Assembly (NCBI GenBank): GCA_002781185.1
Contig: PEUU01000011.1
Coordinates: 1 to 33,498, forward strand
Source of the DNA: Candidatus Jorgensenbacteria bacterium CG03_land_8_20_14_0_80_38_39
GTDB taxonomy: Bacteria; Patescibacteriota; Minisyncoccia; UBA6257; GWB1-50-10
DNA: 33,498 nt
Direction: 5' to 3'
Part shown: piece after piece, positions 1,456 through 18,236 of the stretch
Position numbering within the stretch: position 1 is the first letter of the stretch
Layout: the number at the start of each line of letters is the position of its first letter
The notes under the pieces: model-generated
Databases searched by the model: none
Told to the model about the DNA's origin: nothing
The model's input: only the letters and a program-made list of their open reading frames with translations
Translations under genes and position numbers: made by a program

Positions 1456-2013
1456 ATGCGAAAATTAAAACCCGTTAGAAGTAATCCAGCCGAGGTGAAT
1501 GCCGGTCTACAAGCAGACCGGACTTCTAACGGGTTAAATCGGGAAGAATTTGAGAAAATTGTCGTGGAAGGAATAGAAGCGATTCCGAAAAAGTTTTTGC
1601 GGAAATTGGATAATGTGGCGATTGTTATTGAGGATAAACCGACGCCAGTCCAAAAAAAGAAACTAAACCCCTACACCAATACCATTGGTGTGGGGGTAAA
1701 CATTCATCCGGGCTGGACGCTTTTCGGTTTATACGAAGGCGTGCCGCAGTTGGAACGGGGAGCGAACTACAGCGCGGCGCTTTCAGACAAAATAACTATC
1801 TTCCAAAAGCCGATTGAGGAAGAAGCGGCTAATGAAAAAGATTTGAAAGAAATAGTAAAAAATACCATCTGGCACGAAATTGCCCACCATTTCGGGATGG
1901 ACGAAGCCCGGGTGCGTCAGGCCGAAATCAAAAGGCGGAAAATTTTGCGGCAACGGGAGAAAATCATCCACCGCGACCCGAAGGAGACTGAGGTAAAATC
2001 CATTGTTTTCTGA
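1456..2013 (+). CDS. Zincin-like metallopeptidase (Zincin_1/DUF1025 type) carrying two in-frame palindromic insertions
   Basis: LFGLYEGVP, DKITIFQKPI and HEIAHHFG (HExxH) motifs. Confidence 0.88.
   Translation: MRKLKPVRSNPAEVNAGLQADRTSNGLNREEFEKIVVEGIEAIPKKFLRKLDNVAIVIEDKPTPVQKKKLNPYTNTIGVGVNIHPGWTLFGLYEGVPQLERGANYSAALSDKITIFQKPIEEEAANEKDLKEIVKNTIWHEIAHHFGMDEARVRQAEIKRRKILRQREKIIHRDPKETEVKSIVF
1470..1534. mobile_element. 65-bp palindromic mini-element flanked by TAAA
   Basis: Perfect 13-bp terminal inverted repeats ACCCGTTAGAAGT/ACTTCTAACGGGT; TAAA at 1466-69 and 1535-38; inner hairpin CCGGTCT/AGACCGG. Confidence 0.75.
1668..1696. mobile_element. 29-bp palindromic mini-element flanked by TAAA
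   Basis: CCCCTACACCAAT-ACC-ATTGGTGTGGGGG; TAAA at 1664-67 and 1697-1700. Confidence 0.72.
1971..1987 (+). repeat. Dispersed direct repeat A, copy 1 (CCGCGACCCGAAGGAGA)
   Basis: Identical 17-mer at 1971, 3227 and 5435. Confidence 0.9.
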
Positions 2014-18099: not shown

Positions 18100-18236
18100 C
18101 CCCGTAATACAACGGCGATTGCAATTTCTGGCTGACTCGTAGTTAGATTCATACTTCTTTAATTTTATTATGATTCTAAATGATTCTTCTTTGCGTGGAG
18201 AAATTGAGTCAGACCTATTGCAGTTGTTATACGGGG
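18100..18236. mobile_element. 137-bp MITE-like element flanked by TAAA
   Basis: Ends CCCCGTAATACAAC / GTTGTTATACGGGG, inner pairings TGCAAT/ATTGCA and CTGACTC/GAGTCAG; TAAA at 18096-99 and 18237-40. Confidence 0.65.

Follow-up and report, generated by a model that had tools for sequence, protein, structure and literature searches.

In-frame hairpin insertions with 4-bp target duplications in a Patescibacteria zincin gene and a candidate GIY-YIG partner in related genomes

Background

How do two short hairpins come to lie within the reading frame of a metallopeptidase gene, each with the same four letters, TAAA, on both of its sides? The question is raised by contig PEUU01000011.1 of Candidatus Jorgensenbacteria bacterium CG03_land_8_20_14_0_80_38_39, a stretch of 33,498 nucleotides that is referred to below as the window, in which a gene of the Zincin_1 family holds both hairpins (elements 1 and 2). 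A preliminary description had taken them for members of one family of tiny non-autonomous palindromic elements, with shared ends, variable cores and a TAAA target, that adds peptides to proteins in this lineage. The evidence presented here points, with a probability of roughly 0.6, to two families of hairpins without an open reading frame (ORF), resembling MITEs (transposable elements of the miniature inverted-repeat type), which duplicate 4 bp of their target and are filtered by reading frame, family 1 being moved in trans by small cassettes that encode a GIY-YIG nuclease.

The genome holding the window (G000) comprises 550 kb in 37 contigs, with 38% G+C, and the window is its contig C31. G, L and P numbers denote the genomes, loci and proteins compared, and C denotes contigs. 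The coordinates of all features are collected in Table 1.

Structure of the inserts

The zincin gene starts with ATGCGAAAATTAAA, continues through element 1 (ACCCGTTAGAAGT...ACTTCTAACGGGT) into TAAATCGG and, farther along, passes from AAACTAAA through element 2 (CCCCTACACCAATACCATTGGTGTGGGGG) into TAAACATT. Element 1 is built of a 13-bp terminal stem, in which ACCCGTTAGAAGT pairs with ACTTCTAACGGGT, and an inner hairpin, CCGGTCT-ACAAGC-AGACCGG; its fold of -32.7 kcal/mol (z -6.5) was equalled by none of 200 shuffled sequences. For element 2, with a terminal stem of 13-14 bp, the corresponding values are -23.7 kcal/mol (z -4.5) and one of 200 shuffles, and both hairpins are strong on either strand. 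The window copy of element 2 carries one C-to-T change, which gives a T-G pair on the + strand; since the consensus of its family is a perfect palindrome, this pair represents a single substitution. In essence, each element consists of a single long terminal inverted repeat that is tipped by CCC...GGG.

Together with one TAAA, element 1 adds 65 + 4 = 69 nt to the gene and element 2 adds 29 + 4 = 33 nt, both of which are multiples of three. The peptides read in frame are KPVRSNPAEVNAGLQADRTSNGL, including the codons that span the duplicated TAAA, and NPYTNTIGVGV, respectively. The coordinates, the TAAA flanks and the arithmetic of 69 and 33 bp in the preliminary description were all correct on the sequence. 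Its assignment of both hairpins to one family was not: shared ends and variable cores do occur, but in two different families, CCCGTTAGA...TCTAACGGG (family 1, element 1) and CCCCCACACC...GGTGTGGGGG (family 2, element 2), which have only the CCC/GGG tips and the kind of duplication in common.

The HEIAHH motif of the window zincin is intact. In an AlphaFold2 (AF2) model with a mean pLDDT of 65, the core of the protein scores ~70-88, and values below 50 are confined to residues 1-24, 74-87 and 177-185, which correspond to the two inserts and the C-terminal tail. The inserts occupy the N-terminus and the stretch between the helix at 64-70 and the strand at 91-94; because AF2 scores both with low confidence, the inserted peptides are probably flexible. 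The C-terminal tail of about 20 amino acids (aa) (window positions 1950-2013, residues ~165-185), likewise of low model confidence, is missing from most aligned orthologues. Searches of the entire window returned no Rfam match and, with ARAGORN, no tRNA.

Occupancy of the two sites in relatives

If the hairpins are insertions, orthologues should be found in which the sites are empty and hold a single copy of the flanking tetranucleotide. A protein search, in which 8,000 candidates were scored, yielded 7,918 relatives, and 20 of them were used for alignment A1. These orthologues of the zincin are from assemblies of Patescibacteria, and lengths of 126-135 aa predominate among the 120 best relatives. 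In most of the aligned orthologues, with lengths of 129-135 aa, MxKL is directly followed by NR.. and KKKL by NIHP.., without an insert at either site. Most orthologues thus read as the ordinary zincin sequence that had been expected once the elements are removed, and it is not the case that all of them keep these peptides without the palindromy.

The inserts present in other relatives are variants of the same peptides. P0003 carries NPVRSNPPRVNASLQAGRTSNGV at site 1, the same kind of peptide as that of element 1. At site 2, P0002 and P0005 read NPHTNxIGVGV, resembling the window, P0004, P0009, P0034 and P0087 read NPVRS...GLQADxTSNGV, which is the element 1 kind, and P0010 and P0025 have different cores between NPVRG and SNGV.

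At the DNA level, 80 orthologous loci were collected from genomes, of which 39 were parsed and 41 were unmatched by the motif expression; none of the 39 had an insert. The close relatives have a single TAAA, as illustrated by L002, with ATGCGGAAGTTAAATCGG at site 1 and AAAAAGAAACTAAACATTCAC at site 2 (the latter also in L010). Sequencing runs from groundwater or aquifer metagenomes (24 runs, used as DNA contigs) gave the same picture: in three of four groundwater runs, contigs ~90% identical to the window join position 1663 to 1697 and omit exactly 33 nt (1664-1696).

Further evidence was provided by empty and filled alleles in a metagenome collection of 80 loci (70 parsed, 10 unparsed). Two of the 70 parsed loci, L290 and L279, have an insert at site 2. 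In L290, TAAA-C is followed by a 63-nt element, CCCGTTAGAAGT...ACTTCTAACGGG, and then by G-TAAA, while L314 and L315, whose flanks are 98.5-99.5% identical to those of L290, have a single TAAA. In L279, a 30-nt core is flanked by TGAA on both sides, the leucine codon being CTG in that lineage, and L302, 95.6-97.5% identical to it, has one TGAA only. The repeat at the same codon thus follows the local target, TAAA or TGAA, which identifies it as a true target-site duplication. At site 2, one and the same loop codon was struck on no fewer than three separate occasions, in different lineages: in the window (family 2), in L290 and in L279 (family 1 in both). Orthologous empty sites with one TAAA, suggested in the preliminary description as a check, are therefore present in the proteins and genomes of relatives, in contigs and among metagenome alleles.

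Duplicated targets and distribution of the families

These data raise a further question: are the repeats at the zincin gene an instance of a general property of the elements? For family 1, 72 different copies remained after removal of duplicates and of copies lying within 200 nt of a locus end. Exact 4-mers around the unit N-CCCGTTAGA...TCTAACGGG-N' were found in 43 of the 72 copies, as against 0-3 of 72 in six shifted controls. Among the 43 duplicated 4-mers, TTGA, TAAA and TTTA occur 8 times each, TCAA 5 times, CTTG, TTCA, TGAA and TCCA twice each and six others once each; most conform to TNNA, with T at position 1 in 39 and A at position 4 in 38. TAAA is duplicated at both window elements, as had been described, but it is one variant among such 4-bp targets and not the target as such. 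Copies in G100 that share one 48-nt core are flanked by different repeats, TCCA and TGCA, which excludes a fixed tetranucleotide carried by the element. In family 2, exact 4-mers adjoin CCCC...GGGG in 11 of 26 copies of one set and 8 of 12 of another, the duplicated sequences being TATA, TAAA, TTTA, TCAA, CAAG and CTTG.

Family 1, searched as CCCGTTAGA-N(10-40)-TCTAACGGG, was found in 32 of the 201 genomes sampled from this order, the highest number of copies being 14 (G100). In a sample spanning the phylum, 6 of 121 genomes had it, and the maximum was 21 copies (G436). The reversed pattern, used as a control, gave no match in the genomes of the order. The cores of family 1 range from 27 to 101 nt. 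Family 2, searched as CCCCNACACC-N(3-33)-GGTGTNGGGG, was present in 25 of the 201 genomes, as against none for its control, and reached 9 copies in G014, a genome of the same family-level taxon as G000. The ends of both families are conserved across genomes.

The copy number in G000 itself is low, and the family signal comes chiefly from relatives. The pattern proposed in the preliminary description matched seven times in the 550 kb of G000: two matches are the elements in the zincin gene, one is a 65-nt relative of element 1 (C26) and four belong to a family of 135-138 nt. Another TAAA-flanked element, of 56 nt, lies in C19. When G000 was scanned for any GC-rich hairpin adjoined by a 4-bp repeat, 25 matches were obtained as against 13-14 in shifted controls; this generic scan was too noisy to serve as a catalogue, and family-specific patterns were therefore used. 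The further copies that had been sought thus exist, both in the genome and, for both families, in its relatives.

Some additional family 2 hairpins were noted. At locus L228 (G258:C1:57696-57966), they lie between and beside tRNA genes. Groundwater contigs with loose ends at window positions 1665 and 1700 show that the 29-nt hairpin also occurs elsewhere, in one case beside a tRNA-like sequence. At L240 and L241 (G014), a displaced 7-nt direct repeat, GCTGATT, replaces the 4-bp duplication; it may reflect a nested insertion or a duplicated host segment.

Coding consequences

Another important question is whether the copies within genes are tolerated at random or only when they preserve the frame. 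To avoid circularity, the element and one repeat were first cut in silico, and an open frame across the junction was then sought; copies with an exact repeat were regarded as deep intragenic when the frame so restored was 150 aa or longer and included 25 aa or more on either side. In 16 of the 18 copies of this kind, the element plus repeat is a multiple of three (binomial p 1.7e-6 against one third), an enrichment that had been proposed as a check. A 46-nt subfamily, which comes to 52 nt when the ends and the repeat are counted, is found in short open frames (81-140 aa). Two frames of the element ends are open (PVR...SNG and PLE...LTG) and the third meets TAG or TAA, which explains the recurring peptides.

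Such a filter for length and freedom from stops makes it possible to suggest that the intragenic copies are translated and filtered by selection, removal at the RNA level being unneeded. The earlier proposal that non-autonomous palindromic elements add peptides to proteins is thus upheld by the empty sites, the further copies and the enrichment for multiples of three. Intron-like excision of the inserts from RNA was considered and dropped, as the same filter argues for translation.

Cassettes with the ends of family 1

No mobilising enzyme is present in the window, as the preliminary description had stated. A candidate was found in relatives only, in cassettes of ~275 bp whose ends are those of element 1. 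Of 401 genomes of the order, 49 contained a match to CCCGTTAGA-N(235-265)-TCTAACGGG and none a match to its control. Scripted extraction from 30 fetched cassettes recovered a GIY-YIG-like ORF of 84-104 aa, the sole gene of the unit, in 27 of them, including one that is cut short at 62 aa. The C-terminus of the cassette protein (...RFLSLTG) runs into the right inverted repeat.

Exact 4-bp repeats flank 16 of the 30 cassettes, and in 14 of these the repeat is TGAA in the orientation of the ORF. The flanks differ from one cassette to another, which indicates that cassettes occupy different sites. In G226, three cassettes that are 99.6-100% identical stand at three loci with different flanks, with a repeat at each, and two cassettes of G069 are 99.6% identical. 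With regard to the ORF itself (L173-L202), it lacks its own stop codon and is terminated by the TGA that the duplicated TGAA supplies. In 9 of the 30 cassettes, the left TGAA is preceded by an A, and the resulting ATG gives the start MNPVR....

In an alignment of 19 cassette ORFs (84-93 aa), Y4, Y6, Y17, G19, R27, H31 and E63 are invariant. The Pfam GIY-YIG domain matches the ORFs with E values of 2e-16 to 1.8e-17 and covers almost the whole protein. The nearest matches in a PDB profile search were UPF0213 proteins (1zg2, 8e-12; 1ywl, 8.5e-7) and SLX1 (4e-4), and a search of NCBIfam gave a weak, below-cutoff match to a group I intron endonuclease and nothing else.

Small GIY-YIG ORFs are present in multiple copies, with 3-8 Pfam matches in each of the five genomes searched, most of them frames of 74-142 aa, and many lie between long inverted repeats. 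Among genomes G001-G200, 13 have both short elements and cassettes, 19 short elements only, 11 cassettes only and 157 neither (Fisher p 3e-6, a value that overstates the co-occurrence because the genomes compared are related).

Discussion

How might a hairpin of this type move? A 4-bp target duplication implies strand cuts staggered by 4 nt, followed by fill-in, and a TNNA target, whose outer bases are complementary, is as expected for a symmetric site. Under the reading that we favor, the family 1 hairpins would be mobilised in trans by the ~275-bp cassettes, which share with them both the ends and the 4-bp duplication. The candidate nuclease would recognise the hairpin or cruciform made by the ends, cut at the base of the hairpin and also cut the target TNNA 4 nt apart, and host repair and ligation would complete the move. 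SLX1-type GIY-YIG enzymes cut branched DNA. The insertions, their duplication, the empty and filled alleles, the filter for multiples of three and the ends common to short elements and cassettes are established by the data, while the role of the nuclease as mobilising enzyme and the chemistry of the move are inferred. A copy landing in a gene would persist only if the element plus duplication were a multiple of three and the frame were free of stops, and the gene would thereby gain a short peptide. The copies in the window are probably stranded or rarely moving because no CCCGTTAGA cassette was found in G000.

Several observations weigh against this reading. Exact repeats are absent from 29 of the 72 family 1 copies, and two of the 18 deep intragenic copies (L152 and L161) are not multiples of three. 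The cassettes beyond the 16 with exact repeats retain the 3' TGAA with a different left flank, so that part of the repeat may be selected as a stop codon. Exact-ended cassettes are missing in 19 of the 32 genomes carrying short elements, and the Fisher value is inflated by the relatedness of the genomes compared. The exact long pattern is also unmatched in four of five genomes rich in short elements; a profile of the cassette ORF gave 2-12 matches in each of the five, most of them small open frames, and since the profile matches all five genomes and the exact pattern only one, the exact pattern is too strict for counting cassettes.

In G000, the exact long pattern found no CCCGTTAGA cassette, and its two intact GIY-YIG genes (C4:27314-27565 and C20:4456-4768) lie within other inverted repeats (CCCCGCCCTCTAAGCA... 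and CCCCGTAGTGAAATTTC...). For family 2, a long-spacer pattern revealed no ORF-bearing version; it matched one of 401 genomes, in a unit carrying tRNA genes. We know of no experiment that has shown transposition by a single-domain hydrolytic GIY-YIG nuclease, and duplication of 4 bp is classically the mark of a DDE transposase. Finally, our transposase search covered only six families (DDE_Tnp_1, DDE_Tnp_1_4, TnpB-type, rve, DDE_3 and Y1_Tnp) in five genomes each.

With regard to the GIY-YIG genes of G000 themselves, an ORF-less version, of 102 bp, of the C4:27314-27565 unit lies at C19:5493-5594, and a third gene (C25:26127-26359) is apparently split over two frames.

The strongest competitor, which we consider unlikely, is that the hairpins are MITEs of the classical sort and depend on a conventional DDE transposase, which would be encoded elsewhere, rare or by now lost, the GIY-YIG gene being a passenger or a separate selfish gene, like the tRNA genes. 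Terminal inverted repeats combined with a 4-bp duplication are what DDE enzymes usually leave; tRNA genes also lie between the same ends, so the ends can carry cargo, and the lack of an ORF-bearing family 2 version among 401 genomes fits as well, as do the matches of rve and DDE_3, each in one genome (G055). The transposases themselves are scarce: DDE_Tnp_1, DDE_Tnp_1_4 and TnpB-type proteins were found in none of the five genomes searched, rve and DDE_3 each matched in a single element-rich genome of the five (G055), and self-BLAST of the G000 ORFs revealed no multi-copy transposase-like ORF. A passenger gene also fits poorly with an ORF that is present in 27 of 30 long elements (in one of them cut short), has invariant catalytic columns, reads into the right end and occurs in near-identical copies at different sites.

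Considerably less probable is that a Y1 (HUH) transposase, of either the IS200/IS605 or the RAYT type, moves the elements as single-stranded DNA; they would then be REP-like or PATE-like hairpins, and the flanking tetranucleotide would be a cleavage site and not a duplication. The elements are indeed whole hairpins, like REPs, and four of the five relatives searched have Y1_Tnp-like genes of 165-256 aa (counted from the first ATG, one being truncated at the end of its contig); G000 has no Y1_Tnp match. To our knowledge, HUH transposition produces no target duplication, and here copies with the same core differ in their flanking 4-mers and the repeat at one codon tracks the local target, TGAA or TAAA. 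At the Y1 loci L248-L252 (G226, G055, G100 and G014), hairpins of another kind (e.g., ACCAATCTAAGGAAGTCCGACTTCCTTAGATTGGT) adjoin the gene at four of five loci, at both ends in three and on one side in one, and none has the CCC...GGG tips of either family. Together with their hairpins, these RAYT-like genes would represent another hairpin-repeat system of the same genomes, distinct from the one described here.

That the hairpins are immobile, having evolved in place as lineage-specific protein loops or as functional RNA or DNA hairpins (regulatory or mRNA-stabilising), is scarcely credible and is already contradicted by empty and filled alleles with flanks 98.5-99.5% identical: the hairpins are strong on both strands and the T-G pair of element 2 keeps pairing on the + strand only, but that pair is one substitution from a perfectly palindromic consensus, the window has no Rfam match, orthologues have precise empty sites, and the same ends with a flanking duplication recur at dozens of unrelated loci. 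An origin of the palindromes by local repair was also dropped, as the ends are conserved and unrelated to the flanks. So was the idea, based on an impression, that the interior of element 1 might derive from a tRNA.

Which known elements do the hairpins and their cassettes resemble? The closest published system is Ssn (GIY-YIG nucleases of family cd10448) and its hairpin repeats. According to sections of the report by Chenal et al. (Nat Commun 2025, PMC11893778), single-domain GIY-YIG genes lie between hairpin repeats (SRM/NTS) that are scattered in hundreds of ORF-less copies, the Ssn proteins cut single-stranded DNA adjoining the hairpin repeats that flank their own genes, and the repeats are rarely inside genes; the authors liken the layout of repeat, gene and repeat to an insertion sequence and compare it with RAYT/REP. 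The same sections leave the mobility of the repeat-gene-repeat unit open (PMC11893778), and the main text contains none of the terms "Patescibacteria", "candidate phyla", "target site" and "duplication". The cassette protein, too, is a single-domain GIY-YIG protein of at most about 100 aa (84-93 aa), and its gene is enclosed by hairpin repeats that are also found elsewhere in the genome. In contrast to Ssn, a cassette has its ORF enclosed in a single long hairpin, of which the repeats form the two arms; the end sequences differ, and for the Patescibacteria elements the 4-bp duplication and the empty and filled alleles demonstrate transposition.

At L113 and L117 (G055 and G100), repeats of the TGTCATTCCCGCGAAGGCGGGAATC type stand on both sides of further small GIY-YIG ORFs, one of which is 103 aa long. 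The sequence TGTCATTCCCGCGAAGGCGGGAATC fits the Neisseria NTS consensus as printed in PMC11893778, which indicates that pairs of the Ssn type occur in Patescibacteria, and an ORF flanked by it aligned to the cassette profile with an hhalign probability of 98% (33% identity over 67 columns).

Rickettsia is named in that report (PMC11893778) among the species richest in Ssn repeats. This richness hints at a possible link to the Rickettsia palindromic elements. Rickettsia palindromic elements are short palindromes inserted in frame in protein genes, to which they add peptides, with the gene kept and no transposase encoded. The Patescibacteria hairpins resemble them in behaviour alone, in that palindromes are also inserted in frame into protein genes. 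The phylum and the sequences are different, and for the Patescibacteria hairpins we document a 4-bp duplication, alleles with and without the insert, and a candidate enzyme.

Bacterial MITEs such as Correia, RUP and Nezha are small, ORF-less and multi-copy, with inverted repeats, a target duplication and a longer partner that has the same ends. The hairpins share the small size without an ORF, the terminal inverted repeats, the target duplication with empty sites and the presence at many unrelated loci; they differ in that the family 1 partner, of ~275 bp in total, encodes a GIY-YIG nuclease of ~87 aa and no recognised transposase, and in that the short elements go down to 27-30 nt. REP/REPIN-RAYT systems and derivatives of IS200/IS605 are short hairpins tied to a small hairpin-recognising nuclease and are not known to produce a target duplication, whereas the Patescibacteria 4-mers vary and are duplicated, and none of the five Y1 loci fetched from relatives has these hairpins beside the gene.

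In rRNA genes of the candidate phyla radiation (CPR), GIY-YIG ORFs within non-intron insertions and many short ORF-less insertions are mentioned, and left uncharacterised, in passages of PMC11270868 (J Bacteriol 2024). The phylum is the same, but the host genes are rRNA genes, and "inverted repeat" and "palindrom" do not occur in those passages. In the full-text literature searched, which includes few subscription journals, we found no description of in-frame hairpin elements in Patescibacteria or of a target duplication for GIY-YIG cassettes. New here are two Patescibacteria hairpin families with a documented 4-bp duplication, their repeated in-frame insertion in genes and a ~275-bp nuclease-only partner.

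Recent movement of such units and of their short derivatives is shown by the duplication, by alleles with and without the insert and by near-identical copies that occupy different sites. Streamlined Patescibacteria genomes of ~0.5-1 Mb carry up to a dozen of these nuclease-only mini-cassettes and dozens of hairpin derivatives. In-frame insertions, repeated at one loop, offer a testable route to new surface segments of Patescibacteria proteins. They also account for some of the odd low-complexity peptides (PVRS..SNGV) in predicted proteins of this phylum, and they inflate and distort gene predictions in metagenome-assembled genomes.

If the nuclease is the driver, this would be a new and extremely compact transposition system and possibly a small tool for targeting DNA hairpins. 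A bolder extension, which is conceivable although we lean against it, is that the cassettes are the smallest autonomous DNA transposons known, in which one hydrolytic GIY-YIG nuclease of 84-93 aa and the hairpin of its own ends would suffice, together with host repair and ligation, to move DNA with a 4-bp duplication by a chemistry outside the DDE, HUH, serine and tyrosine classes; the ORF-less derivatives would then act, throughout Patescibacteria, as a general supply of new loop peptides and mobile tRNA cassettes. Under this extension, Ssn-associated repeats and Rickettsia palindromic elements might owe their spread to the same mechanism.

Additional features

The 137-nt element of the window (Table 1) stands directly after a stop codon and is a member of a family in which the arms, of ~35 nt, are conserved and the core varies; of this family, G000 has five complete copies (four of the five flanked by TAAA on both sides) and seven single arms.

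Table 1 Coordinates of the features in the window and of the tRNA-enclosing stems elsewhere in G000
Feature	Position	Strand	Basis or remark
Zincin_1 metallopeptidase-family gene, 185 aa	1456..2013	+	ORF list; Pfam PF06262, E 3.9e-23
Left TAAA of the element 1 duplication	1466..1469		Sequence; empty orthologous site with a single TAAA
Element 1, 65-nt hairpin, CCCGTTAGA...TCTAACGGG family	1470..1534		Sequence, fold, family matches
Right TAAA of the element 1 duplication	1535..1538		Sequence
Left TAAA of the element 2 duplication	1664..1667		Sequence; empty site in L002 and L010
Element 2, 29-nt hairpin, CCCCCACACC...GGTGTGGGGG family	1668..1696		Sequence, fold, family matches
Right TAAA of the element 2 duplication	1697..1700		Sequence
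Intergenic inverted-repeat element, 137 nt, TAAA-flanked CCCC...GGGG, separate family	18100..18236		Pattern match; genome copies
tRNA-enclosing stems, G000	C19:8020-8127, C36:9714-9830, C37:3578-3680		Two have CCCGTTAGA ends

Three of the 32 tRNA genes of G000 (Thr-tgt, Leu-cag and Arg-tcg) are enclosed by 13-14-bp stems with CCC...GGG tips. In relatives, tRNA genes between such ends were found at G118:C19:76160-76427 and G278:C26:511-775. These units may be mobile tRNA cassettes or processing stems.

A 20-nt palindrome, CCCTAGGTTTAAACCTAGGG, extended by TTG...CAA, is present in four identical copies in G000 (C3:15272-15291, C26:1467-1486, C30:6752-6771 and C36:18269-18288) and might be a terminator or belong to another repeat family.

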